Shown here: positions 17,729 through 63,118 of the stretch, in pieces
Layout: the number at the start of each line of letters is the position of its first letter
Numbering within the stretch: position 1 is the first letter of the stretch
Source of the DNA: Candidatus Micrarchaeota archaeon
GTDB lineage: Archaea; Micrarchaeota; Micrarchaeia; Anstonellales; Anstonellaceae
Length of the DNA stretch: 64,000 bases
Direction of reading: 5' to 3'
NCBI GenBank assembly: GCA_026396415.1
Contig: JAPLWX010000028.1
Coordinates: 1,922-65,921, forward strand
Program-made: the position numbers and the translations under genes
Notes under the pieces: model-generated
What the model was told of the DNA's origin: nothing
Seen by the model: only the letters and a program-made list of their open reading frames with translations
The model's database searches: none

Positions 17729-17734
17729 TTTCTT

Positions 17735-37058: not shown

Positions 37059-37784
37059 ATGGAGCAGGACCCATCGGAGCTGACCGCCATAGTGCTTGCC
37101 GGGGGCCTAGGCACGCGGCTGCGCCCCATCACAGAGAAGGTGCCCAAGCCGCTGGTGATGGTGAAAGGCAGGCCTTTCCTGGATTACCTGCTGGAAAAAA
37201 TCGCGCGCATGGGGCTGAGGAGGTGCGTGCTGCTGGTCGGCTACAAGGGAGGGATGATTGAGGATTATTGCGGGGGCGGGAAAAAGTGGGGGCTGAAGAT
37301 ATCATACTCCCATGAGAAGGAGCAGCTGGGCACAGGCGGGGCGCTGGTGAATGCCGTTGCACACCTGCACTCTGCGGCGCTGGTGCTCAACGGAGACAGC
37401 TACCTGGACATTGACGCGCGCGCATTCTATGCATTCCACTGCAAGAGAGGGGCGCTGGCAACGGTCTATGCCATGCAGGGCGCGCTTGAGGCGCGCGGCG
37501 AGGTGGTGGCGGACGAGGCAGGCTGCGTGGAGGCGTTCCGCGAAAAGCAAGGGAGCGGCTTCGGGCTCTTCAACACCGGCGCGTACATCATCGAGAAGCA
37601 GGCTGTGGAATTCCTTGCGCAGCAGGTGGAGGAAGGCGCGCTTCCCGCCGCATTTTCCATGGAGCGCGACGGCTTTCCGCTTTTTGTGAAGAAAGGCTGG
37701 CTGTTTGCCCATGTCGGCACGGGGAAGTTTTTGGACATAGGCACATTCAAGTCGCTTGAGGAGGCGGGGGAAATGCTGCCGTAG
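37059..37784 (+). CDS. sugar-1-phosphate nucleotidyltransferase (heptose-1-P guanylyltransferase-like)
   Basis: IVLAGGLGTRLRPIT signature. 241-aa short form typical of HddC/GMPP-like enzymes. Confidence 0.7.
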   Translation: MEQDPSELTAIVLAGGLGTRLRPITEKVPKPLVMVKGRPFLDYLLEKIARMGLRRCVLLVGYKGGMIEDYCGGGKKWGLKISYSHEKEQLGTGGALVNAVAHLHSAALVLNGDSYLDIDARAFYAFHCKRGALATVYAMQGALEARGEVVADEAGCVEAFREKQGSGFGLFNTGAYIIEKQAVEFLAQQVEEGALPAAFSMERDGFPLFVKKGWLFAHVGTGKFLDIGTFKSLEEAGEMLP

Positions 37785-37824
37785 TGATGCTTGAACCGGA
37801 CTCGTGGAGGAGGTGCCTGCTAAT

Positions 37825-37975
37825 TATAGCAAACCACGAAAGTTCTTCAGCATCGCCCGAAGGGCGATGTCTGATGCAAAATGCAACGGCATTTTGCACA
37901 TCGACAATCCTGCTTCGGATTGCAGACGTGGTTTGGCATGTAGTAGAGCCGAATTGCTTTTCGGCTCTGCTATAG
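37825..37975. mobile_element. MITE-like element copy 2
   Basis: Same termini and hairpin modules as copy 1, with a ~75-nt internal insertion. Confidence 0.5.
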
Positions 37976-38018
37976 TTGAATGATTTATGCCCTGGCTTTC
38001 CCTTGTTGCGCTGCGAGC

Positions 38019-39368
38019 CTAGCCTGGGCCGCCCTCTTTCAAGGCAGCTGATGCAAAGTTCCGAAGCATCTTCTCCGAGTTGCCCGCCTTGGGAGGATAA
38101 TCGCCGGCTGCCAATATCCTCAGCTGGGAAAACGCCACCATGAAAGGGAAGAGCGGGAGGGTGGCAAGCAACAGAGCTGTGCCTGCGAGAAGATGGATTG
38201 GATGCTTGCCCCAGCAATAGTGCTTTCCCTTGTAGCGGACAGGCTTTATGAACATAAGATACGGGATGAAAAAACTGTACTTCTCGATGAAAGCCCCTGT
38301 TGGCGCAAAATAGTCGCCAGGGGCAAAAAGCAGCCCGAGGAACATGCCGATATGAGAAACCCTCCGCCGTATCTTTGCCAAAGTCCCGATATTTCCCTTC
38401 CATTTCTCCAAATAAATCACAGCCGCGCCACTCCCTTGCCCGATGCCAAGCACGGTTCCCTTCGCGCCCGCATCCACACTTGCTTCCGGGATGGCAAAGG
38501 AGAGGCGGTCGTACCTTTTGCCAAGGTCCATCAAGCAGCCATCCAGCATGACGCCAAACAGTGTGGGGCTTGCCATGGAGGAGAAAATGAAAGAATAGCA
38601 GTAGTTGTAAATCATCCTGCCAGCGGAAAGCAGCGCATCCTTGGCCCGCAAGCAGGTGATTGCCCGGTATAAAGCCAAGTTGTGTATGGCGAACCCTGCC
38701 CTGTAATAATAGAGGAATTTCGGCCCGCCGGATGCAACTTCGAACAGCACCATGCTCAGGTAGGGATGGCGCGTTTTTTGGCCTTTTCCCATGAACAGCA
38801 TGCCGTCGGCTTCCAGCCTGGCCTGGTAGTCCATGTCCTCGGCGCCCTTGAAGAACATGGCGTATTCGAATCCTGATTTCTCAAAAACCTTGCGCGGGAC
38901 CGTGCCATACCTGTTTATGCAGTAAACTTCTTTCTTGCCATCCTCGTTCGAAAGCGGCAGGACCGCCTTGCCCTCCCTGCGCGCGGTTTCCACGAGCGCG
39001 CCCAGGAAATCATCCGAGCAGGGGAAGCAGTCAACGTCCGCGTTTGCCACGAATTCATAGCCAAGAAAATAGCCGAGCATCTGGCCGATTGAAAAACTCC
39101 CGGACGAGCCGAGCGGCGCCCTCTCGCGGTAATTGATGATGTTGAGGCCTGGCGGGATGGCTGAGGGGGCATGCCCGAGTATGAGGACGTCAAACCCTTT
39201 TTTCTTCTGCCTTGAGAGGATTGCGAGATGCTCGGACAGCAGCCGTGTGTCGGTGCCGCACGGGATGATTATGACCGCTTCGTTTTCCTTTTCCCCGGAA
39301 ATGTGGCAGACTAGCCGTTCCAACTGTACACGAAGCCCATCCACCAAAACCACCAATGCCAAAGACAA
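38019..39368 (-). CDS. GT-A-like glycosyltransferase with C-terminal membrane region (paralog 1 of 3)
   Basis: N-terminal IIIPCG..DT, ADVDC (DXD-like) and GAEDMDYQ blocks, then hydrophobic C-terminal segments. Paralogous to 47945-48913 and, more distantly, 39388-40758. Confidence 0.55.
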   Translation of the reverse strand: MSLALVVLVDGLRVQLERLVCHISGEKENEAVIIIPCGTDTRLLSEHLAILSRQKKKGFDVLILGHAPSAIPPGLNIINYRERAPLGSSGSFSIGQMLGYFLGYEFVANADVDCFPCSDDFLGALVETARREGKAVLPLSNEDGKKEVYCINRYGTVPRKVFEKSGFEYAMFFKGAEDMDYQARLEADGMLFMGKGQKTRHPYLSMVLFEVASGGPKFLYYYRAGFAIHNLALYRAITCLRAKDALLSAGRMIYNYCYSFIFSSMASPTLFGVMLDGCLMDLGKRYDRLSFAIPEASVDAGAKGTVLGIGQGSGAAVIYLEKWKGNIGTLAKIRRRVSHIGMFLGLLFAPGDYFAPTGAFIEKYSFFIPYLMFIKPVRYKGKHYCWGKHPIHLLAGTALLLATLPLFPFMVAFSQLRILAAGDYPPKAGNSEKMLRNFASAALKEGGPG

Positions 39369-39387
39369 ACGGATGGAAGTGATTTAA

Positions 39388-40758
39388 ATGAATGGCAAGC
39401 AGACCTATTGCCCGTCAGGTGGGAATATGGAACTGGAGTTTGAGGATTTGGGCGGCTTTTACCGCACACCGCCGGCTTTGGAGGACTTGGTTTTCGAGGC
39501 AAAGGACCAGCGGCGCGGGAAGCGCGAGTTGCTCATAATCGTCCCATCCTACCATGACCACTACCGGCTCGGCAAGTTTTTGGCATGCATGAAAAGGCAG
39601 ACCTTCGGCGGCTTTGATGTCGCGGTGATATTGGCGAAGGACGACGAATTCGTCGATGCTTTGGGGCTGACGCTTTGCCAGGTCAAGCGGAATGTGGATG
39701 CCGGGTTTGCAGGCGCGGTTTACCTGGGCCAGCTCCTGGCGCTGGAAGGGGGCTACAAATACTACCTTTTTACCGACGTGGACAGGGTGCCGCATGATGA
39801 AGGCGTTCTCCAGCTGCTTTATGACACCGCGGAAAAGAAACAGGCGGATTTTGTCTATGGCAACAACATCCTGAAGGGGTATTATTTTGACTCTGGCGGC
39901 TTTTTCGAATTCAAGAACCCCCATGTGACAAAGTCGAACTGCGTCTTCGGGCTGATAAGGACCTCCACGCTGGAAAGGACCGGGCTTTACGCCCTGCCGC
40001 TGTATCTTGGCTATGAGGACGTCGAGTTCGAATACCGCCTTAGGAAGGCGATAGGCGCCCAAGCCTACCTTGGCAGGACAATCTATGAACGCTACTGCTC
40101 TTCTGCAAAAAACGCTTTCCTGAAGAACTTCAGGAACGGCAGGATGGACAATCTCTATGGCTACCCTACCATGGTGTGCCTTTTCAACAGCCCGCAGACC
40201 ATATGCCACCTTGGCTTTTTTACAAAGGTGAACATGGTCTTCCTCGTCCTTCTGGTGCAGAAGTTTTCCGCGCTGCGCATACCGGGCCTTTCGAGGCTTG
40301 AGGAAAACGCAAGGAGAGGCACGCTGGTAAAGACGCACGCAACGGGGGTTTCGGATGAGATAACGACGACGAGGGCGGAAACGGGCATTGTCGAGGATTA
40401 TGGGAACCACATAGCCCATGCCACGGTGGAAAACTCTGCCCGCATACTGTCGGCGATCTTTTCCCATTCAGTTGGCTACAAAACGTCCAGCTATTCGCCA
40501 TTGTTCGATTTTTTCATACACGACACATTCTATGTTTTTGATGAAGGGCAGAAAGCCACGCTGCTTTTCGAATGGAAGCGCAAGCCGGGCCTGGCTGCAA
40601 AATTGCTCGCCTTTTCTTCTGCGCTCATTGACGCCGCAGCCGTGCTTCTCAGGTCCCAGTATCTTGATGCCATTGGCGGCAAAAGCATGTTCGACCGGTA
40701 CGGAGAAGGCAGGGTCGGGGAAACCATGGCCAAAGCGAGGGGCAAGGGCGGCCAATGA
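39388..40758 (+). CDS. GT-A-like glycosyltransferase (paralog 2 of 3, divergent)
   Basis: LLIIVPSY, TDVDR and GYEDVEFEYRL blocks in the same order as the paralogs. Confidence 0.5.
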   Translation: MNGKQTYCPSGGNMELEFEDLGGFYRTPPALEDLVFEAKDQRRGKRELLIIVPSYHDHYRLGKFLACMKRQTFGGFDVAVILAKDDEFVDALGLTLCQVKRNVDAGFAGAVYLGQLLALEGGYKYYLFTDVDRVPHDEGVLQLLYDTAEKKQADFVYGNNILKGYYFDSGGFFEFKNPHVTKSNCVFGLIRTSTLERTGLYALPLYLGYEDVEFEYRLRKAIGAQAYLGRTIYERYCSSAKNAFLKNFRNGRMDNLYGYPTMVCLFNSPQTICHLGFFTKVNMVFLVLLVQKFSALRIPGLSRLEENARRGTLVKTHATGVSDEITTTRAETGIVEDYGNHIAHATVENSARILSAIFSHSVGYKTSSYSPLFDFFIHDTFYVFDEGQKATLLFEWKRKPGLAAKLLAFSSALIDAAAVLLRSQYLDAIGGKSMFDRYGEGRVGETMAKARGKGGQ

Positions 40759-40849: not shown

Positions 40850-41758
40850 ATGAACAAGCGCGCTCTGATTTACGGCATTTCCGGCCAGGACGGCTCCTAC
40901 CTGAGCGAGCTGCTGCTTTCCAAAGGCTATGAGGTGGCCGGCACAGTGCGCAACCATGGGAAGGAAACGCTGCCGCCTGTTTCCAGCAAGGCAAAAATCT
41001 ACCGCGCCGACCTAGCAGCAAAGCCTGCGGGTTTTCTCCGCCCCATTGATGATTTTGAGCCCGATGAGGTTTACAACCTGGCAGGGATCCATCTGCAGCA
41101 CATCACCAGTCAAAACGCCCGGCTTGCGGAAAAAGTGAATGCCGCCGCCCCGGAATCGATGCTTGCCCATATCCATAGCCACTGCGCAATGGCGAAATTC
41201 TTCCAGGCATCTTCTGCATATGTATTTGGCGACAAGGCCGGCCGCGTGGATGAAAGCACATGCCCTGCCCCAAATTCCGTCTACGCCAGGACCAAGCTTG
41301 CGGCGCAGCAAAGCGTCCTGCGCTATCGCCTGCTGGGCATGTTTGCGGCAGCAGGCATACTTTTCAACCACGAATCTCCGCTCCGCAGCGAGGATTTCGT
41401 GACCAGGAAAATCTCAGCGTACGTGGCAAGGGAGAAACTTGGGCTCAATGGCGGCAAGGCGCTGATGCTCGGCAACCTGGACGCAAAGCGCGATTGGGGG
41501 TTTGCAGGGGACTATGTGGAAGCGATGTGGCTCATGCTGCAGCAGAAGCAGCCGGATGATTATGTCATTGCAACCGGCGAGCCGCACAGCGTGCGCGAAT
41601 TCTGCCAGGAGAAAAGCATGTCCGCTCCGACCCCGCCCTTGTCCGGCCCGAGTCGGGCTTCATGCTCGCAGATGCAAGCAAAGCGCGGGAAAAGCTTGGC
41701 TGGAAGCCCAGGATGGGATTTTCCGGCCTGGTCCGGCTCCTGGTGGATACTGATATAA
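40850..41758 (+). CDS. divergent GDP-mannose-4,6-dehydratase-like enzyme (C-terminus out of frame)
   Basis: IYGISGQDGSYL, NHESPLRSE and [11 protein letters not shown] blocks. After CQE the conserved GMD C-terminus ([19 protein letters not shown]) continues in the -1 frame. Confidence 0.55.
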   Translation: MNKRALIYGISGQDGSYLSELLLSKGYEVAGTVRNHGKETLPPVSSKAKIYRADLAAKPAGFLRPIDDFEPDEVYNLAGIHLQHITSQNARLAEKVNAAAPESMLAHIHSHCAMAKFFQASSAYVFGDKAGRVDESTCPAPNSVYARTKLAAQQSVLRYRLLGMFAAAGILFNHESPLRSEDFVTRKISAYVAREKLGLNGGKALMLGNLDAKRDWGFAGDYVEAMWLMLQQKQPDDYVIATGEPHSVREFCQEKSMSAPTPPLSGPSRASCSQMQAKRGKSLAGSPGWDFPAWSGSWWILI

Positions 41759-41789
41759 AAAGGCTTGGTAGGAAAAATGACGGTTGTGA

Positions 41790-42683
<894 letters not shown>

Positions 42684-42753
42684 AGCTTGCGCGCATGATG
42701 GTGGATGCCGACATGTCCCATATAAAAAAGCTCCATAATATCTAAAACGTCAG

Positions 42754-44058
42754 ATGATGGTGGATACTGTGCAAAATGAAAAAATTCAACCGGTCAGGAA
42801 GATAACCTCGTGCCGCGTATGCGGCAATGCCAGCCTGGTCCCCATACTTTCGCTTGGCGACCAATACGTCTCGAATTTCGTGGCCTCTGAATCGGAACAG
42901 GGGGAAAAAATCCCGCTGAACATAGTCCTTTGCGAGGAAAAGAGCGGAGGATGCGGCCTTCTGCAGCTTGAGCACACCACGCCCCCCGACATAATGTATG
43001 CGCATTACTGGTATCTTTCCGGGATAAACGAGTCCATGAAAGTTGCGCTCGCAGACATAACCAAATGCGTGGAGGCCATGATTCCTCTCCAGGCAGGGGA
43101 CATGGTGCTGGACATTGGCTGCAACGACGGCACCCTTTTGCGCAGCTACACGAAAAAAGGGATAAAGCTGGTGGGCATTGACCCCGCCAAGAACCTGCCC
43201 AAGTACTCGTCGGTCGGCACCACCAAGATACTCAACGACTATTTTTCCGCGCGCACCGTGCAGAGGCATTTCCCAGGCGAAAAGGCGCGCGTGGTGACTG
43301 CCATTGCCATGTTTTATGACCTGGATGACCCGAATGGATTTGTAGCGGATGTTGCCGGCATATTGAGACAGGACGGCATTTTCGTGGTACAGATGAGCTA
43401 CCTGCCATTGATGCTGGAGACCAATGCGTTCGACAACATCTGCCACGAGCACCTGGAGTATTATTCCTTGGCTTCGCTTGGCAACCTGCTTGCAAGGCAC
43501 GGCTTGGAAATATTCGACATGTCCCAAAACGACGTCAACGGCGGAAGCTTCCGCGTCTATTGTCGCTTTGCGGGAAGCGCGGTGCCGCAGCCGCCTGGCG
43601 CCAAGCAGAGGCTTGCGGAATTCGTGCGCAGGGAAAGGGAAATGGGGCTGTCAGGCAGGAAGCCCTACGAGGATTTTTCATCCCGCGTGCAGGCCATCAG
43701 GGAAAAGACGGTCGCGTTCATCAAAAAGGAGCGGGCAGGCGGCAAGAGGATATTTGTCTACGGCGCCTCCACCAAGGGGAACACGCTGCTCCAGACTTTT
43801 GGGCTGGACCACAAAACGATCGAGGCTGCCGCAGAGCGGAACCCGGACAAGTACGGGAAGAAGACAATCGGCACGCTGATACCCATAATTTCAGAGGACG
43901 AGGCGCGGAAGCTCAAGCCCGATTATTTCCTGGTCCTTCCCTGGCACTTCATCAGCTCGTTCGTAAAGCGCGAAAGGGGCTATCTTTCCTCGGGCGGCAA
44001 ATTCATCGTGCCCCTGCCGGAGTTCAGGATAATCGGCTCGGCAGATGAGATGGGCTGA
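42754..44058 (+). CDS. NDP-hexose C-methyltransferase (TylCIII-like, zinc ribbon + MTase + C-MT C-terminal domain)
   Basis: N-terminal CRVCG..C..C zinc-binding module, DIGCNDGTLL SAM motif, and a C-terminal domain as in the Methyltransf_13/14 family. Confidence 0.7.
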   Translation: MMVDTVQNEKIQPVRKITSCRVCGNASLVPILSLGDQYVSNFVASESEQGEKIPLNIVLCEEKSGGCGLLQLEHTTPPDIMYAHYWYLSGINESMKVALADITKCVEAMIPLQAGDMVLDIGCNDGTLLRSYTKKGIKLVGIDPAKNLPKYSSVGTTKILNDYFSARTVQRHFPGEKARVVTAIAMFYDLDDPNGFVADVAGILRQDGIFVVQMSYLPLMLETNAFDNICHEHLEYYSLASLGNLLARHGLEIFDMSQNDVNGGSFRVYCRFAGSAVPQPPGAKQRLAEFVRREREMGLSGRKPYEDFSSRVQAIREKTVAFIKKERAGGKRIFVYGASTKGNTLLQTFGLDHKTIEAAAERNPDKYGKKTIGTLIPIISEDEARKLKPDYFLVLPWHFISSFVKRERGYLSSGGKFIVPLPEFRIIGSADEMG

Positions 44059-44198
44059 GTTGCTTTCCTATGGGACGGGCATTGCAGGCCAAAAAGAGGA
44101 ACGCGCCCAACGGCGATTCGCGGGCCCGCCTGCCGGATTTGGCGGGTGCCGACCAGCATTCTTAAAAGGATGGAAGAGCACCATTTGGAAAAGATTAT

Positions 44199-45368
44199 AT
44201 GGGCAAGGAGAAGATTCTTTTCATCTGCACGAGCATGCCTACGAGGCTCGGCGGCGTGCGAAGGCTCTACAACAACATGCTGTTTTTCTCGAAAAAATAT
44301 GAAATCCATTTCGCAAAGCTGACGCTTGACAATGCAAAGGCAGTGGCAGAAATCAAAATGCCCTCGTGGATAAACTTCGTGGAAGTGGCGCCTGGGAAAG
44401 TGCCTTTTGACCCCGAGATGGCGTGCCTGGTCCCGCCAGCCTGGAATGAATACAGGAGTGCCGGCGGCTGTGAAAAAAAGCTGCAGGAGTACATCGATAA
44501 GAACGGCATTGCCATTGTGTTCTGCCACTCGATAACGCTCTCGTTTGCGCTGCGGGGGCTGAAAGCAAAGGTAAAGATTGCGGATATTGTTGATTCTGTC
44601 CTGAATTATTACAAGACAAAGGACAATGCATGCCCGACAATCACATCCAAATTGCTCTATTTTTCCCAATCGGCATTGTACAGGCGGCTTGAAAAAATAA
44701 TAGACCGGGATTACGACCTGGTGCTTTTCTGCTCTGAAATAGACAGGCGGGAAAGCCTGATACCAAAAAACAAGACGTGCCTCTTGGATGTCATTTACAT
44801 ATCCGACTTGGAAAATGAGGAAAAGCAGGGGCCCAAAAACACCGGGGCCAGGCCCATCGACGTGGCAATCATGGGAAGATGGGAGCACCCGCCAAACCGG
44901 GATGGGCTTGCCCGCGTGGCAAAACAGCTCGGGAAAATCAATGGCAACATCAGGATTATCGGCCCGAACCTCCCCCAAAGGCTGCAGCTTCCGCCAAATG
45001 TGGAAAGGGTTGGGTTCGTGGATGACATTGAGGATACCCTGTCGAATTCCAAGGTGTGCCTTGTGCCGGTATGGTACGGCCCAGGCCTGCAGAACAAGGT
45101 GTTTGACGCATTGAAATGTGGGTGCATCATCGTATCGACCCCGCACACGAGAATACAGATGGAGGCGAATGGATTCCGCTCTGAATCGATCATATACACT
45201 GATGACATGGCAGGCGCCGTCAACACAGCACTGCAGAATTATGGGAATGAGGGCGCTGGCGGGATGTACAGGATATATTCGGAATGGGAAAAAATCTCGC
45301 GGAAAAACAAGATGGAATATTCGCAAAAGCTCGAGCGGATCCTGCAAAGCAAAGGCACGGACCCCTAG
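44199..45368 (+). CDS. glycosyltransferase (GT-B fold, GT4-like)
   Basis: C-terminal Glycos_transf_1-like region (VWYGPGLQNKVFDALKCGCIIVST). Confidence 0.55.
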   Translation: MGKEKILFICTSMPTRLGGVRRLYNNMLFFSKKYEIHFAKLTLDNAKAVAEIKMPSWINFVEVAPGKVPFDPEMACLVPPAWNEYRSAGGCEKKLQEYIDKNGIAIVFCHSITLSFALRGLKAKVKIADIVDSVLNYYKTKDNACPTITSKLLYFSQSALYRRLEKIIDRDYDLVLFCSEIDRRESLIPKNKTCLLDVIYISDLENEEKQGPKNTGARPIDVAIMGRWEHPPNRDGLARVAKQLGKINGNIRIIGPNLPQRLQLPPNVERVGFVDDIEDTLSNSKVCLVPVWYGPGLQNKVFDALKCGCIIVSTPHTRIQMEANGFRSESIIYTDDMAGAVNTALQNYGNEGAGGMYRIYSEWEKISRKNKMEYSQKLERILQSKGTDP

Positions 45369-45431
45369 GCCATTGCCAGGCGTTTCCCGCTTAGGGATTT
45401 AATCTGCTGGAAAAGCCCGTGGTGAAAAACG

Positions 45432-46828: not shown

Positions 46829-46899
46829 ATGCGCGCGGAAACCAACGACGCTGGAAAATTACCGGCGGTTGGCTGCATTTCGGCTGTTTTAAAAGCAAT

Positions 46900-52765: not shown

Positions 52766-53325
52766 GGGAAGCGGCAGGGGCGCACATCGAGGCGATGAAA
52801 AAGCTGCAGTCGGATGCGGCGCTTGGCATGGCTGCGGAAAAGCTCGCCTCGAAAACTGCGCACGCCTTCAAGAACGGCGGCAAGCTGCTCGTTTTCGGCA
52901 ATGGCGGCTCCGCTGCCGATGCGCAGCACATGGCCGCCGAGTTTGTCGGCAGGTACTTGAAAGAGCGGCGCGCCCTCCCTGCGATTGCGCTCACCGCAAA
53001 CACGTCCGCCCTCACTGCAATCGGCAACGACTATGGCTTTGAACGGGTGTTCGCGCGCCAGGTTTCGGCGCTTGCGGGAAAGAATGACGTTGTGGTGGGC
53101 ATTTCCACCAGCGGGAATTCGCCAAACGTCATCCTCGCGCTTGAAGCCGCAAAGGCAAATGGGGCATTCACTGCTGCGCTGGTGGGCGGCAAGGCATGCA
53201 GGATGGACAGTGCCGCGGACCTCGTCCTCAAAGCGCCCTCCGAGAGCACGCCGCGCATACAGGAAATGCACATCCTCATCATCCACACGGTCTGCGGAAT
53301 GGTCGAAACCGAACTTTTTGGATGA
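52747..53325 (+). CDS. gmhA: phosphoheptose (sedoheptulose-7-phosphate) isomerase, SIS domain
   Basis: [14 protein letters not shown] and [10 protein letters not shown] blocks. 192 aa. Confidence 0.85.
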
Positions 53326-55362: not shown

Positions 55363-56157
55363 ATGCTCATGGAGAATTCCACCAAGGTCGTAATACTTTG
55401 CGGGGGGGAAGGCACGCGCATGCGCGAGGAGACCGAGTACGTTCCAAAGCCCATGGTGAAAATCGGCGGGATGCCCATCCTTTGGCACATAATGAAGATC
55501 TATTCTGCGCAGGGCTATAGCAACTTCGTGATCTGCCTCGGCTATAAGGGGGACATGATAAAGCAGTTCTTCCTCAACCACGAGCTCATGCAGAACGACG
55601 TTACAATCAACCTCGGGGATAGGGGGCTGGATGTTGTCCACAAGGGAAGCGGCTCCGAGGACTGGGCCATAACCTTTGCTGACACCGGGCTCAAGGCGCA
55701 GACAGGCGCCAGAATCAAGAGGATCGAGAAATACATAGATGGTGACCATTTCCTTGCCACATACGGCGACGGGGTTTCAGACATAAACCTGGCAAAAGAG
55801 CTGGAATTCCACAAAATGATGGGGGTCACCGCCACCCTTGCGGGAGTATCGCCCTACTCCAAATTCGGGATAGTCAAGTCCAACTCGCAGGGCCTGGTCG
55901 AAAAGTTTGTTGAAAAGCCCATGCTTTACGACTATGTCAATGGCGGCTACTACATATTCAATCGCAATATCTTCGACTTCCTGCAGGCGGACGAGTCATG
56001 CATCCTTGAGACAAGGCCTTTCAACGCCCTTGTCGAGAAAAGGCAGATGGCAATGTACCGGCATGACGGCTTTTGGCACTGCATGGACACGTACAAGGAC
56101 TATCTTGAGCTGAACGGGATATGGGACAGCGGCGCGCGCCCTTGGAAAATCCAGTAG
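55363..56157 (+). CDS. rfbF: glucose-1-phosphate cytidylyltransferase
   Basis: VILCGGEGTRMREETEYVPKPMV and GFWHCMDTYKD blocks diagnostic of RfbF/DdhA. Confidence 0.8.
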   Translation: MLMENSTKVVILCGGEGTRMREETEYVPKPMVKIGGMPILWHIMKIYSAQGYSNFVICLGYKGDMIKQFFLNHELMQNDVTINLGDRGLDVVHKGSGSEDWAITFADTGLKAQTGARIKRIEKYIDGDHFLATYGDGVSDINLAKELEFHKMMGVTATLAGVSPYSKFGIVKSNSQGLVEKFVEKPMLYDYVNGGYYIFNRNIFDFLQADESCILETRPFNALVEKRQMAMYRHDGFWHCMDTYKDYLELNGIWDSGARPWKIQ

Positions 56158-56179: not shown

Positions 56180-57058
56180 ATGCGAATCAGGATGCTTTTG
56201 CTGGGCGCAAGCGGGGTAGTCGGCTTTCACGCGGCTTCTGAACTGAGGGCGCATGGCCATGAGGTCACCACGGTATCGCGCAATTCGCCATCGGTCGACT
56301 TCAGGGCGGATGTCACTGAGCCGGGCGAGCTTGGGCGCATCGTTGAAAAGGCCAGTCCGGAAGTGGTGATAAACGCGATAAAGCCATCGATGTCGGTTGA
56401 TGACATGGAAGCCGGGCGCAGCCTGGCATACGAAGTAAACACATTGCTCCCCGAGCGCCTGGCAAGGCTGCAGATGGCAATGGGGTTTGTTTTGGTGCAC
56501 ATGAGCAGCGACGGGGTTTATGAGGGAAAGGAGGGGGAGACATACGGTGAGGAATCAATACCGTACCCCCAGAATTTCTACACATTCACAAAGGCGCTTG
56601 CGGAAGAGAGGGTAAGGTGCCTTGCGAAGCGCCATCTCATACTCCGCACCGAGGGCGTGTTCGGCTTTGATGAAAGGCATGCCAATTTCTACATGAGGAT
56701 GAAGGATGCCTGCCTTGACAGGAAAGAGTTCCCTGCGGCCATCGACCAGTTCTCGCAGCCCATATACGGCGGGGAGCTTGCCAGGCTGATGAGGCTCTTG
56801 ATTGAAAAAGGGTGCAATGGCACCTACAACGCAGTCGGGCCGGAGTATGTTTCACGCTTCGGCCTGGCGCACAGGCTGCAAGGCGCCATGGGATGGGACT
56901 GTGCGGTTTCGCAGTCTTTCTCGGCTGGCAGGGGGATGAGGATGGGCAGATTCCTGCGCGTGAGCACAGCCAAGATAGAGGCCGCGGTTGGCAGGATCAA
57001 ATCGCTTGAAAGCCAGATCGCGGACCTTAAGAGGTGGGAAAATAAAAACAGTGATTGA
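56180..57058 (+). CDS. NAD(P)-dependent sugar 4-reductase (RmlD-like)
   Basis: LLLGASGVVG Rossmann N-terminus and YTFTK (YxxxK). RmlD substrate-binding-domain architecture. Confidence 0.65.
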   Translation: MRIRMLLLGASGVVGFHAASELRAHGHEVTTVSRNSPSVDFRADVTEPGELGRIVEKASPEVVINAIKPSMSVDDMEAGRSLAYEVNTLLPERLARLQMAMGFVLVHMSSDGVYEGKEGETYGEESIPYPQNFYTFTKALAEERVRCLAKRHLILRTEGVFGFDERHANFYMRMKDACLDRKEFPAAIDQFSQPIYGGELARLMRLLIEKGCNGTYNAVGPEYVSRFGLAHRLQGAMGWDCAVSQSFSAGRGMRMGRFLRVSTAKIEAAVGRIKSLESQIADLKRWENKNSD

Positions 57059-57569
57059 AATCCTGCCCCTGGAGGGCGCGCTGAAGCTGAGCCAGTTCTT
57101 CGCATCCGACGAGAGGGGGGGCATCCTGAAGGCTGCAGAGGCAGAGCTATTGGAGAGGCTCGGCTTTAGCATAACCGAAGTCCTGTTCTCAACCAACAGG
57201 AAAGGCGCGCTCCGCGGGATGCACTACCAGGACCCGTCCCCGCAGGCAAAAATCGTCTTTTGCATTTCCGGCAGGGTGTTTGACGTCATTGCTGACCTGA
57301 GGCCTGGCTCGAGAACGCACAGGAAATGGCTTGGCATCGAGCTTAGCAAAGAGAACAGGACGGGAATTTACGCCCCAAAAGGCTTTGCGCACGGGTTCCT
57401 GTCCCTTGAGGAAAACAGCACCCTGGCATACCTGATAGACGGGAAGGTGGAGCCGGAAAGCGAGCGCGGCATAAGGTACGACGACCCTGCGCTTGGCATA
57501 GCATGGCCAGTCTTGGGGATAAAGCCGGTCCTCAGCAAAAGAGACAGGGGATTTGCCCTGCTGGAATGA
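57051..57569 (+). CDS. NDP-4-keto-6-deoxy-sugar 3,5-epimerase (RmlC-like cupin)
   Basis: RGMHYQ, GIYAPKGFAHGF and IRYDDPALGIAWP blocks. GTG start overlaps the upstream stop. Confidence 0.7.
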   Translation: MIEILPLEGALKLSQFFASDERGGILKAAEAELLERLGFSITEVLFSTNRKGALRGMHYQDPSPQAKIVFCISGRVFDVIADLRPGSRTHRKWLGIELSKENRTGIYAPKGFAHGFLSLEENSTLAYLIDGKVEPESERGIRYDDPALGIAWPVLGIKPVLSKRDRGFALLE

Positions 57570-57582: not shown

Positions 57583-58869
57583 TCAGGCTATCCTTGGCCT
57601 GGGCACAGGCAGTATGAACTTGCCGCCCGATTGCTTGAAAGATGCCTGCTGCGCCATGATTTCGTCGGCCATGTTCCAGGCGAGTATGAGCAGGTAGTCC
57701 ACCTTGCTTTCGTCCAGCTTTTCCGGACCATAAACCATGATATGCGTCCCGGGGGTATAGTGGTTCTGCTTGTACGGGCTCCTGTCCACTGCATACTCCA
57801 CAAGGTCCGCCCCTATCTTGCAATAGTTCAAAAGCGTGTTCCCCTTGGCAGGCGCCCCGTAAATGGCAATCTTCTTGCCCCCTTTCTTCAGGCCCCGGAG
57901 GAGCGCGAGAAGCTCGGCCCGAAGCGTTCCGACATCGGATGCAAACTTGTCATAGGCTTCGTTCCCATAAAGGCCAAGCCTTTTTTCCTCATCGAGCATG
58001 CCGCCTATCTTCCCGCTGCTGGCTTTCCGCGGCCCGCCTTTCTTCTGGGCATATATGCGCAGTGTACCCCCGTGCACCGCCTGCTTCTTCACGTCAAAGA
58101 GCTCCATGCCCGACTGGCCAAACAGCCTGATTATCGGCTTGAGGGAGAAATAGGAAAGGTGCTCATGGTAAATGGTATCGAACTCAAGATGGCTGTAAAG
58201 GTCTGCCAGGTAGGGGAATTCCGCTATGAAAACCCCGTCGTCCGCAAGAAGCGATGACACGCCCGTCACAAAATCCTTGAGATCCGGGACATGGGCGAGC
58301 ACGTTGTTTGCGATCACCACCTTTGCCGGGCCTTCGGATGCCCTGATTTTCCTTGCGCAGCCCGAGTTGAAAAAGTCATTGAGGGTCCTGACCCCGGACT
58401 CGTTTGCCTTGAGGGCGATGTTTGTAGCCGGCTCGACCCCGAGTATCCGCACATCCTTGCCCAGCATGTTCCGAAGCAGGACGCCGTCGTTGCTCGCTAT
58501 TTCCACCACGAGGCTGCCTTTGCCTGCGAAATCGGCCAGCACCTCGGAAGCCAGCATTGCAAAATGGCCCCTCATTGTTGCAGATGTGGATGAAAAGTAG
58601 ATATAGTCCTTGAACATGACTTCGGGCGGAACGACGTAGTTCAGCTGCACCAGCCCGCATTCATTGCACAGGCAAACGTCCAGCGGGTATGATGGCTCGG
58701 GGTCGCCTATCCTTTCGGGCTTTATGAAGCTGTTCGCAAGCGGGGTCGGCCCGAGGCGCAAAAATACGTGAAGCTTGCCGCTTCCGCAAATCCGGCAGGC
58801 AGTAATGTTAGGCACTCCATCCCCTCCACACCAGGCGGCATTCCCCAAGGGCAGGTAACCTTTGCGCAT
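57583..58869 (-). CDS. NDP-hexose C-methyltransferase (TylCIII-like), second paralog
   Basis: CRICG..CNEC zinc ribbon, VVEIASNDGVLL SAM motif and a C-MT C-terminal domain. Paralog of 42754-44058. Confidence 0.7.
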   Translation of the reverse strand: MRKGYLPLGNAAWCGGDGVPNITACRICGSGKLHVFLRLGPTPLANSFIKPERIGDPEPSYPLDVCLCNECGLVQLNYVVPPEVMFKDYIYFSSTSATMRGHFAMLASEVLADFAGKGSLVVEIASNDGVLLRNMLGKDVRILGVEPATNIALKANESGVRTLNDFFNSGCARKIRASEGPAKVVIANNVLAHVPDLKDFVTGVSSLLADDGVFIAEFPYLADLYSHLEFDTIYHEHLSYFSLKPIIRLFGQSGMELFDVKKQAVHGGTLRIYAQKKGGPRKASSGKIGGMLDEEKRLGLYGNEAYDKFASDVGTLRAELLALLRGLKKGGKKIAIYGAPAKGNTLLNYCKIGADLVEYAVDRSPYKQNHYTPGTHIMVYGPEKLDESKVDYLLILAWNMADEIMAQQASFKQSGGKFILPVPRPRIA

Positions 58870-60005: not shown

Positions 60006-60013
60006 CGCAGGCA

Positions 60014-63000
60014 TCACCATTGCTTGTCAACGGTGGCAGGGTCCACCCACCCTGCCTTGTTGCCCGTGAAGTTCTGCATGCGGTATATCTTGACCTCGCC
60101 ATTCTTGCTCTTGTAGACCAGGTCAAAGCCCGGAAGCGCCCCAAGGTAGAATGCCTTGTAGAGGTTGGAGCGGTAGAAATCGGTCTTCGCATCTTCCATG
60201 CCGTCCACCAGGGTGCCGTTGGGGCCCAGCCAGACCTTCTGGTTGTCATAGACTATTTCGGCGTAGGTCATGTCGGACTGCTCGTCGATGGTTCGGAGGA
60301 ACCCCTTGGAGAGCACAAGGTCGCCGTTTGCATCCTTCCTGTCAACATAGTAGGTTGCCGAGATTTTCTCGCCTGTCGAAAGCGTGGCGTCGCCCACGCA
60401 GTAGGCGGGCTTGGACGGGTCGATGGCATCCTTGCCAAGCCTGTAGGCATAAACGCCCGTCCTCTGCTGGCTCTCGGAAATCACGCAGGTATTGGCTGCT
60501 GTCTGGACGCGCGGCACGGCTATCCTTTCAGGGGAGTGCTCGTATTCGCATTCCGAAGCGCCTGGCTGCTCGCTGACCGAGGTGGCTCCCTCATGCACGC
60601 AGCCCAGGTAATTCAGCGCACCGTACTTGCCCCCGAACAGGCTCCCGCTCGCGATGAGCTCCTGGTCGAAAAGCGCGTATCTGCTGTCAAAATAGTTCAT
60701 GCTGTCGATCAGGTCCTGCGTGCTCCCCACGATATAGTCATGCGCCACGCGGCCTATCATGCCGCGCGATGCATGCTCGTTCCTGAGCACGGTTTTCTTG
60801 TCCGCAAAGTAATTGGTCCAGTGGCCATAGTCCCACCACGAGGTGACGCGGTCGGACGAGTCAAGGTTCTTCCCCATCCATTCCATGGAGTCGATCCAGT
60901 AGTCCGCAAGCCTGTTGCATCGGAACCTGGCCGAAGTCACCGCCTCGGACGAGCGCTGCTGCGCCGCGGTGTCGTTTGCAGCAGGGAACATCTCGCCTGC
61001 CTTCATCTGGGACAGCCAGCATACGCTGTCATCGAACTGGTTGTTCATGCTGCCGGAGAAATTCGCATAGGCGCCTGCGTCGCAAAGGGGCTGCATCTGG
61101 CTGTATGGCACGCCTTTCGCGCGCAAATCCTCGCAGAGCTTGGAAACCACGGGCGCCATTGCCACGGGGTTGTCCTGGTAGCGCGGCTCAAGCGACTTTA
61201 TGGCGAAGATGTAGGCATATGGGACAGGGCCTGCCGCCTGCTCGTATACCACGAGGAGGAGCAGGAAGGCAAATGCCGCAGGCGCGTACTTTCCAGCCGA
61301 GGGCAGCTTCATTTTTCCCGACAGCCAGCAAAAAAGCCGCTCAACCTCGGCGAATGCCACGGCTGCGGCAACCGCTATCATCATGCCGGCAAATATGGTG
61401 TACTTCATCTTGTTCACCCCGACGTATAGCACCGGCATGGTGATGATGAGGAGAAGAAGCGGTATGGACGGGATTTCGCGGTCCTCCGCCCTGCGGGAAA
61501 AATGCCTAAGCGCCAAGCCAACCATGGAGATGACCAGGAATACAAAAAGCAATGAATCGTCCTTGGTGGACGTGGCCTGGGACAGCCCTGCAAATGAGCT
61601 GAATATGATGTCGAGAAGGCCGAAAAAGGCGTTGCCAGCAAGGGTGAAAACGGCGGACAACAAGGAAAGCGCGCCATACATCACGTTTGCGAGGATTCCG
61701 AGCCCGGTTGCGTTCGCGTCGATATGGTTCTTCGGGACAAGCGCAAGGAAGCCGGCATCGCCTTCAAACGAGGTGCCGGCCACGCTCTGCTCCGCGATGG
61801 TGCGCTCAAGCGCGGTATTGAAGTCGGCCGCACCAACATAGCTTGAAACCGTATCTTTCACAAGCCCGCCAACCGGAGTCAAAAAAACCAGCAGAAGCGC
61901 GGCAAATATGCCCGCGCCGATGGCTGCATAGCGCTTGCTTTCGCTCCAGCCCAGGCTGGAGAGATACCACATGGCAAATGCAAACGCCACTCCGCCAAGC
62001 GCCATGAGCACGGGACCGTAAACCAGGGAGCCTAAGAGGGCGTTTCCATATGCGCCGTTAAGCAGCGTGCCTAGGAAAAAGCCCCCGGCCGCGAAGGCTA
62101 GCGCCACTACAAAGTCGCCGCTTTCCTTGCCGCGCCAGAAGTAGTCAAGCGACTGCAGGATGGCAAGCCCTGCAAGCGGCAGGGCAAGCACAGGAGTGAA
62201 GTTCGAGCTTAGTATTGCGGTGAAGAAGCCAAATGCGGATATGATGCCAAGCGCCTGGTTTTTCTTGGCAAGCGAGATGGCCAGGAGGCCCATGGACATG
62301 AACAGCATCATATTGCCGACCGGCGCCGCCTCATTGACTCCCGCGGACATCTTGTAGATTGTGATGGGGAGGAATGCGAGAAGGAACGCCACGAAGACGC
62401 CATACCGCCTGCCATAAAGCGAGGAGACCAGCAGGTAGGCACCGAAGGACACGAATGCTGCGGAGATGGGAGGGAGCCAGGAAGAGGTGGTGAACAGCAG
62501 GTAGTTGTTGTACTCGCCCCCGTTGGTGTAAATGGAGTACCATTCGGCCTCAAGGTATTTCTTGAGCGGCTGGCCGCGGTGGGTTGCCTGCACTTCAGGC
62601 CACCAGGCAGTGTCATCAGTGGGCGGCTCGACACCGTCCCGGATTATCTGCCCTGTCCCATAGACGTAGAAATACGGGTCGAGCTCAGAATACATCGGCG
62701 AGTAGGGTTGTATCCTTATCCAAAAAGCAAGGAACATTGCAAGAAGGAGAAGCGCCGGGACAGCAAGGGCGATGGCGCGCTCTTTCGTGATGATTTGGCG
62801 GTCAATCTTGGGGAGATTGGGGGCTGGGAGCTTGAACGCCCCGCTGCGCACGCCAATGAAAAGCCCTGCAGCGGCGATTATGAAAATATCGGCGAAAACG
62901 AGGAAAAGGGAAAATTTTATCCCGGCAAGGGACTCGATGAAAAGCAATATCGGGACTGCAAACAGCCCTATGAAAAAGGACAGCAGCAGCTTTTCCATGG

Positions 63001-63118
63001 CGCCAAAATCTGTTTTTTTCAGAAGAGGCCAGCCGATGGCAACGCCGGGGATGATTGCGGATAGGAATACGATCAGTGAAAAATACAGCGCGTCGAATGT
63101 GAATGCCACCATCGTCAA
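60014..63118 (-). CDS. aglB: archaeal oligosaccharyltransferase AglB (STT3 homolog)
   Basis: WWDYGHW (WWDYG) motif. 13 N-terminal TM segments, a large C-terminal soluble domain and DxD-like loops. 1034 aa. Confidence 0.9.
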   Translation of the reverse strand: MTMVAFTFDALYFSLIVFLSAIIPGVAIGWPLLKKTDFGAMEKLLLSFFIGLFAVPILLFIESLAGIKFSLFLVFADIFIIAAAGLFIGVRSGAFKLPAPNLPKIDRQIITKERAIALAVPALLLLAMFLAFWIRIQPYSPMYSELDPYFYVYGTGQIIRDGVEPPTDDTAWWPEVQATHRGQPLKKYLEAEWYSIYTNGGEYNNYLLFTTSSWLPPISAAFVSFGAYLLVSSLYGRRYGVFVAFLLAFLPITIYKMSAGVNEAAPVGNMMLFMSMGLLAISLAKKNQALGIISAFGFFTAILSSNFTPVLALPLAGLAILQSLDYFWRGKESGDFVVALAFAAGGFFLGTLLNGAYGNALLGSLVYGPVLMALGGVAFAFAMWYLSSLGWSESKRYAAIGAGIFAALLLVFLTPVGGLVKDTVSSYVGAADFNTALERTIAEQSVAGTSFEGDAGFLALVPKNHIDANATGLGILANVMYGALSLLSAVFTLAGNAFFGLLDIIFSSFAGLSQATSTKDDSLLFVFLVISMVGLALRHFSRRAEDREIPSIPLLLLIITMPVLYVGVNKMKYTIFAGMMIAVAAAVAFAEVERLFCWLSGKMKLPSAGKYAPAAFAFLLLLVVYEQAAGPVPYAYIFAIKSLEPRYQDNPVAMAPVVSKLCEDLRAKGVPYSQMQPLCDAGAYANFSGSMNNQFDDSVCWLSQMKAGEMFPAANDTAAQQRSSEAVTSARFRCNRLADYWIDSMEWMGKNLDSSDRVTSWWDYGHWTNYFADKKTVLRNEHASRGMIGRVAHDYIVGSTQDLIDSMNYFDSRYALFDQELIASGSLFGGKYGALNYLGCVHEGATSVSEQPGASECEYEHSPERIAVPRVQTAANTCVISESQQRTGVYAYRLGKDAIDPSKPAYCVGDATLSTGEKISATYYVDRKDANGDLVLSKGFLRTIDEQSDMTYAEIVYDNQKVWLGPNGTLVDGMEDAKTDFYRSNLYKAFYLGALPGFDLVYKSKNGEVKIYRMQNFTGNKAGWVDPATVDKQW

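Follow-up and report, generated by a model that had tools for sequence, protein, structure and literature searches.

What sugar does an archaeal glycosylation locus make when it carries the genes of a heptose pathway, and on what is that sugar displayed? The question is raised by a 64-kb stretch of DNA (hereafter the window) from a Candidatus Micrarchaeota archaeon, in which genes for a sedoheptulose-7-phosphate isomerase (GmhA), a heptose-7-phosphate kinase of the GHMP family (HddA) and an HddC-like nucleotidyltransferase share a locus with the oligosaccharyltransferase gene aglB. An earlier reading of this DNA, made from its letters alone (the sequence-only reading), had proposed a heptose nucleotide pathway feeding an N-glycan or S-layer glycan. 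Here we report that 25.4-63.1 kb of the window is probably the principal lipid-linked glycan and protein-glycosylation locus of this DPANN archaeon, which is in our judgement the best explanation of the whole. It is best described as an agl-type glycan locus, a known class, from a DPANN archaeon, with a homologue of the Campylobacter GDP-heptose/Cj1427 pathway and a variable set of branched-sugar and methylation accessories. The locus is made wholly of known enzyme families, and the full picture drawn here is a genome-level prediction.

A heptose module conserved among Micrarchaeota

Family identities, orthology and synteny are the observed part of this explanation. Families were called with Pfam and NCBIfam models and their cut-offs, and structures were compared by searching the sequences of the Protein Data Bank (PDB); the features are collected in Table 1. 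A scan of a genome collection with the kinase returned 12 loci, a minimal estimate of prevalence since exact peptide patterns were required. In eight Micrarchaeota loci (designated by L numbers, as are the other loci and contigs compared) the kinase is 72-89% identical to that of the window, and the surrounding module is largely conserved, with not every gene present in every locus. Its order is a GT2-like glycosyltransferase, a short enzyme of the short-chain dehydrogenase/reductase (SDR) superfamily, an enzyme resembling GDP-L-fucose synthase (Fcl-like) and a Cj1427-like SDR; divergently from these HddA, GmhA and a GT4 glycosyltransferase; then the HddC-like transferase and the flippase Wzx. 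HddA and the Cj1427-like gene occur in all eight, and an AglH-like initiating transferase, a PGM or WecB often lies near the module in relatives. The sequence-only reading had named synteny with related archaea as a check on its assignments; the overlapping kinase and gmhA genes standing beside one SDR trio in eight independent Micrarchaeota loci is more than chance would give.

Some 70 further clusters of the kinase (formed at 90% identity), at least 60% identical to it, all belong to Micrarchaeota or come without a named taxon. HddA and GmhA were also found together in metagenome-assembled genomes (MAGs) of Nitrosopumilaceae and Thermoplasmatota, mostly with a GmhB-like phosphatase of the HAD family. 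Clear homologues of the Cj1427-like gene (48%) and of the Fcl-like gene (41%) accompany them in a single Nitrosopumilaceae locus, L027; two Thermoplasmatota loci hold HddA and GmhA, one of them with a GmhB homologue.

Enzymes of the proposed heptose route

The most informative gene of the locus, and one missing from the list of the sequence-only reading, is the Cj1427-like SDR of the conserved core. Its product matches PDB entries 6VO6/6VO8 over its full length (46% identity over 312 aa, 299.6 bits, E=3e-88), with the next structure at 74 bits, and its orthologues are 72-84% identical in all eight Micrarchaeota loci. We take 6VO6 to be the Campylobacter jejuni GDP-heptose C4-dehydrogenase Cj1427, going by the molecule name of the entry and by the enzyme reported by Huddleston et al. 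2020. Cj1427 oxidizes C4 without dehydration, its tightly bound NADH being recycled by alpha-ketoglutarate, and yields GDP-D-glycero-4-keto-D-lyxo-heptose (PMC10680097); epimerases and Fcl-family reductases turn this 4-keto product into non-deoxy epimers of D-glycero-heptose (PMC10680097, PMC7949155).

Adjoining the Cj1427-like gene is the Fcl-like gene, whose orthologues are 67-83% identical in seven of the eight loci and only 31% in the truncated L016. The Fcl-like protein scores 228 bits against E. coli GDP-L-fucose synthase and 162 bits against 7M13, a 350-aa entry named 'GDP-L-fucose synthase' that we take to be C. jejuni Cj1428. The short SDR of the core gave no useful PDB match. Because the Cj1427-type gene is conserved next to the heptose genes, we favour a heptose that is non-deoxy, oxidized at C4 and epimerized, rather than a 6-deoxyheptose.

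Profile searches bore out the heptose assignments of the isomerase and the kinase. The kinase has GHMP N- and C-terminal domains, and its best NCBIfam family is HddA, to which it belongs only distantly (213 bits, with the equivalog cut-off at 600). Its four best PDB matches are all heptose-7-phosphate kinases (3K85, 4N3O, 4USK, 4USM; 153-180 bits), followed by a fucokinase at 65 bits. One of them, 4N3O, is entered as 'Putative D-glycero-D-manno-heptose 7-phosphate kinase' and is presumably C. jejuni Cj1425. The isomerase lies 14 bits under the trusted cut-off of TIGR00441 (195 against 209), scores 193 bits on NF010546 and is named D-sedoheptulose 7-phosphate isomerase by the NCBI pipeline PGAP. 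The kinase and gmhA genes share a 19-nt overlap, and they overlap likewise in relatives L012-L015. An ADP-heptose route was rejected because the kinase is of the GHMP/HddA type rather than the PfkB/HldE type.

The HddC-like transferase scores 98 bits against HddC of Yersinia pseudotuberculosis (6JQ8/5XHW) and 88 bits against human GMPPB, and 127 bits on the HddC model (cut-off 300). It is 49-53% identical to a nucleotidyltransferase that adjoins GmhB in L013, as a separate gene, and is fused to it in L012 (Ca. Anstonella stagnisolia; 12627-13937, minus strand) and L020 (12603-13913, minus strand). The 436-aa fusion protein carries DRDGVIN and CPH...CxCRKP, the latter being the CxH...CxC motif of GmhB, and a HAD profile search retrieves proteins that JGI and NCBI name heptose-1,7-bisphosphate phosphatase. 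The putative HddC role of the transferase is supported by this context, namely synteny and the GmhB fusion in relatives.

GmhB itself stands next to or fused at the module in L012, L013 and L020 and is absent near it in the closest relatives, L015-L019. No GmhB/HAD phosphatase was found in the window by a six-frame scan for DxDG[TVS] (one implausible match only) or by tblastn with the GmhB proteins of relatives. Since it is lacking both here and at the module of L015-L019, the phosphatase is either unlinked, as in C. jejuni, or replaced in this sub-lineage.

In the route that we propose, sedoheptulose-7-phosphate would be isomerized by GmhA and phosphorylated at C1 by the HddA-type kinase, after which the 7-phosphate would be removed by a GmhB-type phosphatase, presumably unlinked in this sub-lineage and adjoining or fused to HddC in other Micrarchaeota. 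The Cj1427-type dehydrogenase would then oxidize C4 without 6-deoxygenation, and the Fcl-like epimerase/reductase and the short SDR would set the final stereochemistry. The neighbouring GT4 enzyme, a putative heptosyltransferase, would add the heptose to a polyprenyl-linked glycan that is started by the AglH-like enzyme and flipped by Wzx, and AglB would most probably transfer the glycan to S-layer or other surface proteins. In this scheme we infer the nucleotide specificity, the sugar stereochemistry, the substrates of the C-methyltransferases discussed below and the place of AglB as the final acceptor step.

Dehydratase genes and a possible GDP-mannose branch

The sequence-only reading had put 6-deoxyheptose beside heptose as a predicted sugar and had pointed to two enzymes resembling GDP-mannose 4,6-dehydratase (GMD). 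The known heptose 4,6-dehydratases, of the DmhA/WcbK/DdahA type, are indeed GMD homologues and commoner in C. jejuni than the C4-dehydrogenase route (PMC10680097). With two GMD-family genes in the locus, and an RmlC-like cupin and Fcl- and RmlD-like reductases at hand to finish the product, 6-deoxyheptose could be the main sugar made. We nevertheless consider this unlikely. GMD genes are absent from the 10 kb on either side of the heptose genes in all eight relatives, where the Cj1427-like gene is always present. The second copy (GMD#2) looks like an ordinary GDP-mannose dehydratase: it passes the equivalog cut-off of TIGR01472, carries the catalytic residues SSSE...YxxxK, is 80-90% identical to other Micrarchaeota GMDs and shares its operon with a C-methyltransferase rather than with the heptose genes. 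The first copy (GMD#1), all of whose top PDB matches are GMDs, falls short of the TIGR01472 cut-off and has SSAYVFG where GMDs have S(T/S)SE, so that Tyr replaces the catalytic Glu. The role of this Glu is known from the E. coli and human enzymes. GMD#1 may be a reductase-type paralogue or a decaying gene.

Both GMD genes are, moreover, interrupted in the assembly, and match GMD profiles only to about position 262 of 342. The frame breaks in each after REFCQE (after ...GAATTCTGCCAGGAG in the DNA), and about 10-12 codons are lost. Compared with P0121, an intact 329-aa GMD to which it is 90% identical, GMD#2 has lost about 12 residues at this point and continues in another frame to a normal C-terminus at 42745; GMD#1 has lost about 10 residues and continues in another frame to 41799, where an ATGA overlap joins it to the start of GMD#2. 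The two copies share a 146-nt tract at 99% identity (41466-41611 and 42430-42575), which ends exactly at the lesions; elsewhere the paralogues are 70-78% identical. The tract indicates gene conversion or assembly collapse. The evidence from independent contigs consists of the 12-nt end of one Logan contig (L001), which matches the window at 100% along 20,191 nt. Its first bases, TGGGAAAAGCAT, set in 12 nt before the GMD#2 junction, and with the bases that follow they encode W-E-K-H-V in the correct frame. Because L001 reads in-frame sequence just upstream of the junction, the lesion in GMD#2 probably arose in assembly, at a repeat. No record was returned by exact look-ups for either truncated reading frame or for the GT2-like frame upstream of them.

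A co-directional run at 40850-47934 comprises GMD#1, GMD#2, C-methyltransferase 1, a glycosyltransferase, two methyltransferases and a second glycosyltransferase. By analogy, this run suggests a branch towards a GDP-6-deoxy-3-C-methyl-hexose, in which GMD#2 would act on GDP-mannose, C-methyltransferase 1 would follow and the Glu-less GMD#1 would possibly serve as reductase. The analogue is the virenose route of Coxiella burnetii, which joins a GMD to a TylCIII-like C-3 methyltransferase; the window likewise has a GMD followed directly by a TylCIII-type C-methyltransferase. In Coxiella, unlike here, the product serves a bacterial lipopolysaccharide (LPS), and the reductase and epimerase partners are uncertain in the window. 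A candidate source of GDP-mannose, to judge by its profile matches, is the second nucleotidyltransferase (30179-30937), which is not an orthologue of the GmhB-fused enzyme.

AglB and the probable destination of the glycan

The locus closes with AglB, as the sequence-only reading had it. The protein carries the hallmark WWDYG motif and, in ELDPYF at residue 147, DPYF, with about 14 hydrophobic segments within residues 1-632. It is a very divergent member of its family (PF21436, 24.0 bits against a cut-off of 23; TIGR04154, 39 bits against 450, E=3e-10), and among STT3/AglB structures it matches only around WWDYG (E about 1e-3). On these motifs and scores it is a divergent, credible candidate oligosaccharyltransferase.

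A second alternative is that the locus builds a lipid-anchored or secreted capsule- or LPS-like polysaccharide or lipoglycan, for example for attachment to a host, and that AglB is its neighbour by coincidence. Wzx flippases and AglH-like transferases also serve pathways of the O-antigen and exopolysaccharide type, the polytopic protein beside the AglH-like gene could be a polymerase, ligase or GT-C enzyme, and in none of the eight relatives does an AglB gene lie within 10 kb of the module. Yet no Wzy, Wzz, ABC-transporter or export gene was recognized in the window, AglB directly abuts the sugar genes in this genome, and an AglH-like enzyme, a Wzx-like flippase and AglB make up the canonical archaeal N-glycosylation set (review PMC11407970). 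The cultivated, acidophilic Ca. Micrarchaeum harzensis, further, has a glycosylated S-layer; neither genes for synthesis of a wall polymer or LPS nor nucleotide-sugar synthesis were found in it, and it is thought to depend on its host for nucleotide sugars (bioRxiv 10.1101/2021.04.28.441871). A polysaccharide as the end product is improbable on this balance. The N-glycosylation context of the sequence-only reading stands as far as hallmark motifs and adjacency to the sugar genes carry it, the adjacency being that of one genome.

That the kinase, isomerase and transferase are misassigned, being a GHMP kinase and a SIS protein for some other sugar phosphate and a ManC or RmlA-like transferase, is very improbable: all three do score below their equivalog cut-offs and the kinase is a 'hypothetical protein' at NCBI, but the top family and four top structures of the kinase are heptokinases, the isomerase is close enough to its cut-off to be named by PGAP, kinase and gmhA overlap in relatives, two genomes encode the transferase as a fusion with a phosphatase of the GmhB type, and the adjacent SDR is 46% identical to 6VO6, which we take to be the GDP-heptose-specific Cj1427.

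Several observations count against the N-glycan explanation that we prefer. The link between AglB and the sugar genes is an adjacency in one genome only, in view of its distance from the module in all eight relatives. With no GmhB in the 64-kb window the heptose route is incomplete there, and a GmhB-like profile search of 5.8 billion proteins placed none from the MAG of the window among its best 120 matches. HddA, HddC, Fcl and GMD#1 all score under NCBIfam equivalog cut-offs; HddC is inseparable from ManC by sequence, and the other nucleotidyltransferase of the locus scores higher on both models. In neither GMD gene does a frame of about 320-340 codons run uninterrupted. No CDP-glucose 4,6-dehydratase is recognizable, no protein of the window exceeding 72 bits on TIGR02622. 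No confirmation that 6VO6 is Cj1427, finally, came from the literature searched. Of the heptose nucleotide pathway first proposed, then, GmhA, the HddA-type kinase and the HddC-like transferase hold, while GmhB is missing from the window and the guanylyltransferase is not assignable from its sequence alone.

Accessory genes and possible branched sugars

The genes of the window that are absent from the 10 kb on either side of the module in relatives are the GMDs, C-methyltransferase 1, two GT-B glycosyltransferases, two methyltransferases, the GDSL hydrolase, the RmlC- and RmlD-like enzymes, the SDR termed SDR348 and AglB. In the window these accessory genes take up about 11 kb inserted between HddC and the core (37.8-48.9 kb), together with a 3' extension. 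Logan contigs from four sequencing runs end exactly at 37854, about 70 nt past the HddC-like gene, and two others read through; 37.9-42.6 kb is mostly without a retrieved Logan contig, one reaching only 38353. The breaks at 37854 point to strain heterogeneity or repeats in the inserted region.

Domain scans recovered the C-methyltransferases, O-methyltransferases and SGNH hydrolase that had been predicted. Both C-methyltransferases have the full three-domain set: an N-terminal zinc-binding domain (PF08421), a class I S-adenosylmethionine (SAM) methyltransferase domain (Methyltransf_13/23/14) and the C-terminal PF08484. At the periphery of the locus, and variable between strains, a CDP-glucose-linked set would comprise the RmlC-like and RmlD-like enzymes, SDR348 and C-methyltransferase 2, while the two methyltransferases and the SGNH enzyme, the latter acting on O-acyl groups, would supply decorations.

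The sequence-only reading had claimed a CDP-glucose pyrophosphorylase and RmlC- and RmlD-like enzymes. The cytidylyltransferase and both Rml-like proteins are present; the 4,6-dehydratase step is the part that is missing, and the Rml-like proteins score under their equivalog cut-offs. The window contains no RmlA or RmlB, leaving the RmlABCD set incomplete, and for these two reasons we regard the RmlC- and RmlD-like proteins as enzymes for other 4-keto sugars, probably GDP- or CDP-4-keto intermediates. The heptose epimerases of C. jejuni are RmlC-like cupins (PMC7949155). The 362-aa SDR that adjoins the cytidylyltransferase in L013 may be a CDP-glucose 4,6-dehydratase; the window has no orthologue of it. 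SDR348, for which no NCBIfam model comes near its cut-off, and the Cj1427-like SDR were rejected for this role, as their motifs, SSCSVYG and TTNSGYG, are without the acid/base pair of dehydratases; that of SDR348 is of the epimerase/dehydrogenase type.

In L017, whose kinase is 87% identical to that of the window, one operon (5857-9962, minus strand) encodes the Cj1427-like SDR, an extra Fcl/GME-like SDR, a C-methyltransferase, the Fcl-like enzyme, the short SDR and the GT2-like protein; L016 and L019 carry the same C-methyltransferase in their heptose operons, and C-methyltransferase 2 of the window is 38-40% identical to it in the three loci. A C-methyltransferase inside the heptose operon suggests that a 4-keto-heptose is C-methylated in these relatives. 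The window keeps two C-methyltransferases in its heptose-bearing locus. A bolder proposal, which we hold as doubtful, is that in Micrarchaeota and some other archaea Cj1427-type heptose epimers are C-methylated to branched-chain heptoses displayed on AglB-dependent N-glycans; it is prompted by the position of the C-methyltransferase, in L017 with the extra SDR, between the C4-dehydrogenase and the Fcl-like gene. Branched-chain heptoses are, to our knowledge, a sugar class not described before. If the proposal were true, some DPANN symbionts would make their own nucleotide sugars.

A further set of sugar genes, in the glycan locus of L015 (1112-4866), runs from a cytidylyltransferase-type nucleotidyltransferase through an N-formyltransferase and a DegT aminotransferase to a transketolase-like pair split into N and C halves; it suggests formamido- or two-carbon-branched sugars.

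In the three GT2-like proteins the motifs DxD and GGED are invariant, and a C-terminal membrane segment is common to them. Their family, seen also in L012, L015 and L017-L020, is small, with only 111 representatives when 1.84 billion proteins are clustered at 50%, and its Micrarchaeota members are covered by no Pfam model; a Pfam scan of distant members matched PF00535 (Glycos_transf_2) in 12 of 42, and we therefore class the three paralogues as divergent GT2 enzymes. For the core paralogue (47945-48913), a profile search against PDB sequences gave nothing and a single-sequence AlphaFold model was uninformative (pLDDT 34.5).

Extent and surroundings of the locus

All genes listed by the sequence-only reading were found, through open reading frames, Pfam and NCBIfam, within a few codons of where it had placed them or exactly there. 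The locus begins upstream of the first of them (37059), at about 25.4-27.2 kb, with the polytopic membrane protein and the AglH/WecA-like transferase; a GalE-like SDR, the second nucleotidyltransferase, WecB, a GlmM-like mutase and Wzx follow. Its transferases number seven: three GT2-like, one GT4, two GT-B and the AglH-like enzyme. The polytopic protein could be a GT-C enzyme, polymerase or ligase. In L015 a 580-aa gene product without a Pfam match, compared with it by size and position and similar in both, is encoded between HMG-CoA reductase and the AglH-like transferase. Orthologues of the latter adjoin the heptose module in L012 and L015. Wzx, called as 546 aa in an independent contig, adjoins the HddC-like gene in all relatives.

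Table 1. Features of the glycosylation locus by position in the window, with the matches on which each was named
Position	Strand	Feature	Evidence
25369-27162	+	Polytopic membrane protein, 597 aa, about 12 transmembrane segments, C-terminal soluble domain of about 190 aa	No Pfam match
27162-28154	+	AglH/WecA-like polyprenyl-phosphate HexNAc-1-phosphate transferase, predicted initiator	PF00953, 119 bits; weak WecA/MraY NCBIfam matches
28167-29111	+	GalE-like SDR epimerase	Pfam Epimerase, 211 bits; TIGR01179, 174 bits, under cut-off
30179-30937	-	Second sugar-1-phosphate nucleotidyltransferase, ManC-like	NF052502, 177 bits; HddC model, 136.5 bits; both under cut-offs
32690-33826	-	UDP-GlcNAc 2-epimerase WecB	TIGR00236, 290 bits (cut-off 210)
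33917-35305	-	Archaeal GlmM-like phosphohexose mutase	TIGR03990, 425 bits (cut-off 439); four PGM/PMM domains
35357-36997	-	Wzx/MOP-family flippase, AglR-like	PF01943, PF13440, MurJ
37059-37784	+	HddC-like heptose-1-phosphate nucleotidyltransferase, assigned by synteny	Best PDB match Y. pseudotuberculosis 6JQ8/5XHW
38019-39368	-	Divergent GT2-like glycosyltransferase, paralogue 1, C-terminal transmembrane segment	No Pfam match
39388-40758	+	Divergent GT2-like glycosyltransferase, paralogue 2	Faint PF00535, E=0.027; 54% orthologue in L020
40850-41799	+	GMD paralogue (GMD#1)	TIGR01472, 216 bits (cut-off 415); frameshift after 41611; catalytic Glu to Tyr (SSAYVFG)
41796-42745	+	GDP-mannose 4,6-dehydratase (GMD#2)	TIGR01472, 418 bits (cut-off 415); frameshift at 42575
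42754-44058	+	TylCIII/TcaB9-type NDP-4-keto-sugar C-methyltransferase 1	PF08421, 48 bits; PF13489, 65 bits; PF08484, 156 bits; directly downstream of GMD#2
44199-45368	+	GT-B glycosyltransferase (Glyco_trans_1_4)	Pfam, 43.6 bits
45432-46109	+	FkbM-family methyltransferase	TIGR01444, 38.4 bits (cut-off 37.7); PF05050
46106-46828	+	Class I SAM methyltransferase (Methyltransf_23)	PF13489, 44 bits
46918-47934	+	GT-B glycosyltransferase (Glycos_transf_1)	Pfam; 338 aa in L001
47945-48913	-	Divergent GT2-like glycosyltransferase, paralogue 3, conserved core	52-55% orthologues next to short SDR in L012 and L017-L020
48910-49689	-	Short extended-SDR, 259 aa, conserved core	Weak Epimerase and RmlD matches; 52-75% orthologues in 7 loci
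49706-50665	-	GDP-L-fucose-synthase-like 3,5-epimerase/4-reductase (Fcl-like), conserved core	NF047922, 309 bits (cut-off 500)
50665-51663	-	Cj1427-type GDP-heptose C4-dehydrogenase homologue, conserved core	PDB 6VO6/6VO8
51728-52765	+	HddA-type D-glycero-D-manno-heptose-7-phosphate kinase (GHMP)	NF049969 (HddA) top family
52747-53325	+	GmhA sedoheptulose-7-phosphate isomerase (SIS family)	TIGR00441, 195 bits
53345-54343	+	GT4 glycosyltransferase adjoining gmhA	PF13439 and PF00534; 58-81% orthologues in 5 loci
54478-55272	+	GDSL/SGNH hydrolase or acyltransferase	PF13472, 35 bits (cut-off 32.9)
55369-56157	+	Glucose-1-phosphate cytidylyltransferase	TIGR02623, 288 bits (cut-off 300); 63-69% orthologues in L013, L015 and L019
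56180-57058	+	RmlD-like 4-keto reductase, not canonical RmlD	TIGR01214, 139 bits (cut-off 224)
57051-57569	+	RmlC-like cupin 3,5-epimerase, not canonical RmlC	TIGR01221, 138 bits (cut-off 156)
57583-58869	-	TylCIII/TcaB9-type C-methyltransferase 2	PF08421, 86 bits; SAM methyltransferase domain, 47 bits; PF08484, 188 bits
58968-60005	+	Extended SDR (SDR348), distantly Cj1427-like	Motif SSCSVYG; best PDB match 6VO6, 77 bits
60014-63112	-	AglB oligosaccharyltransferase, divergent, 1032 aa	WWDYG at residue 761; NCBI 'hypothetical protein' NTX79_04065

The archaeal origin of the DNA, likewise part of the first reading, is confirmed by its lipid genes and by its match to a Micrarchaeota MAG. Upstream of the locus lie genes for HMG-CoA reductase, a UbiA-family prenyltransferase (possibly DGGGP synthase), and a myo-inositol-1-phosphate synthase with a CDP-alcohol transferase. 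The HddA-like kinase is identical to NCBI 'hypothetical protein NTX79_04020' of a Candidatus Micrarchaeota MAG, and ten further proteins of the window map to proteins MCX6771182-MCX6771204 of that MAG. Independent Logan contigs, drawn from several sequencing runs, agree with the window at 100% identity along stretches of up to 20 kb, so that the sequence represents a real population. A tRNA scan found no tRNA genes in the window.

The myo-inositol-1-phosphate synthase gene and, after it, the CDP-alcohol phosphatidyltransferase gene (11053-12992, minus strand) are a head-group pair of the archaetidylinositol type, situated at the edge of a low-GC region. Inside this low-GC stretch, at about 10-22 kb, two tandem units of about 2.6 kb occupy 13866-19100 with blocks 76-94% identical. 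A tyrosine recombinase whose tail is a double zinc ribbon is encoded in each (13920-15119 and 16586-17728), and the units bear arrays of a TAAGCGCA(N)TAAGCGCAA motif; GC content here is 47-51%, against about 57% elsewhere. They may be one or more integrated mobile elements.

Relation to known systems

The closest likeness is to the capsule heptose module of C. jejuni NCTC 11168, which we take to consist of Cj1423 (HddC), Cj1424 (GmhA), Cj1425 (HddA), Cj1427 (C4-dehydrogenase), Cj1430 (epimerase) and Cj1428 (reductase), with GmhB unlinked. Three of these, Cj1423, Cj1425 and Cj1427, are mentioned in PMC10680097. The window has the same enzyme families in the same logical order; 4N3O is the second-best structural match of its kinase, an Fcl-family reductase is adjacent and GmhB is again presumably unlinked. 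It differs in its archaeal host and in a Wzx/AglH/AglB context in place of the Kps capsule system. The Fcl-like enzyme of the window is nearer to the bifunctional E. coli enzyme than to 7M13, the conserved core of Micrarchaeota has no cupin epimerase and adds a short SDR and a GT2-like protein, and some Micrarchaeota relatives have HddC fused to GmhB or carry an inserted C-methyltransferase. A bacterial S-layer glycoprotein glycan, cited through PMC3750248 (refs 31-33), shares the four-enzyme logic of GmhA, HddA, GmhB and HddC; it differs in that the glycan is O-linked and the heptose unmodified, with neither C4-dehydrogenase nor Fcl-like enzyme.

The sequence-only reading knew of no described archaeal agl pathway with this combination of genes; the lack of an archaeal precedent is true only in part. 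The N-glycan of Thermoplasma acidophilum contains D-glycero-D-galacto-heptose (Vinogradov et al. 2012, as cited in PMC11407970 and PMC12448462), and a 2024 review of archaeal N-glycosylation lists a heptose isomer in it (PMC11407970). As those secondary accounts present it, this is, like the glycan predicted here, an archaeal Asn-linked glycan with a non-deoxy epimer of D-glycero-heptose. In T. acidophilum it is the structure that has been determined; for the window it is the genes. Given an Fcl-type 3,5-epimerase/4-reductase, the stereochemistry predicted for the window need not be galacto-D as in T. acidophilum. In Iplasma, a relative of the Thermoplasmatales from acid mine drainage, a cluster for heptose (described as ADP-heptose), GDP-fucose and dTDP-rhamnose lies near S-layer glycosylation genes (Yelton et al. 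2013, PMC3750248). That cluster, too, is an archaeal glycosylation locus predicted from a genome to join heptose and 6-deoxyhexose synthesis; unlike it, the window has a GHMP HddA-type kinase, which points to the alpha-anomer/GDP route, and Cj1427-like and C-methyltransferase genes.

Our literature search returned no paper linking Micrarchaeota or DPANN archaea with GDP-heptose, or combining hddA, gmhA and archaea, and no assigned pathway for the heptose of the Thermoplasma N-glycan, known since 2012. In a survey of 303 complete archaeal genomes most sugars of the 'rare group', apparently including GDP-heptoses, were absent from Archaea (PMC7725333).

Conclusions

The locus provides a concrete, conserved gene set as a candidate heptose route for archaeal surface glycans. 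The Cj1427-type C4-dehydrogenase route, so far studied in Campylobacter capsules, would reach more widely, into eight Micrarchaeota loci and one Nitrosopumilaceae MAG. About 38 kb would be given over, in at least some genome-reduced DPANN archaea, to nucleotide sugars of their own, and the surface glycan is the likely interface of DPANN archaea with their hosts. We propose this locus as a useful starting point for the genetics of heptose glycans in archaea; it extends, unsurprisingly, the known diversity of archaeal glycans.

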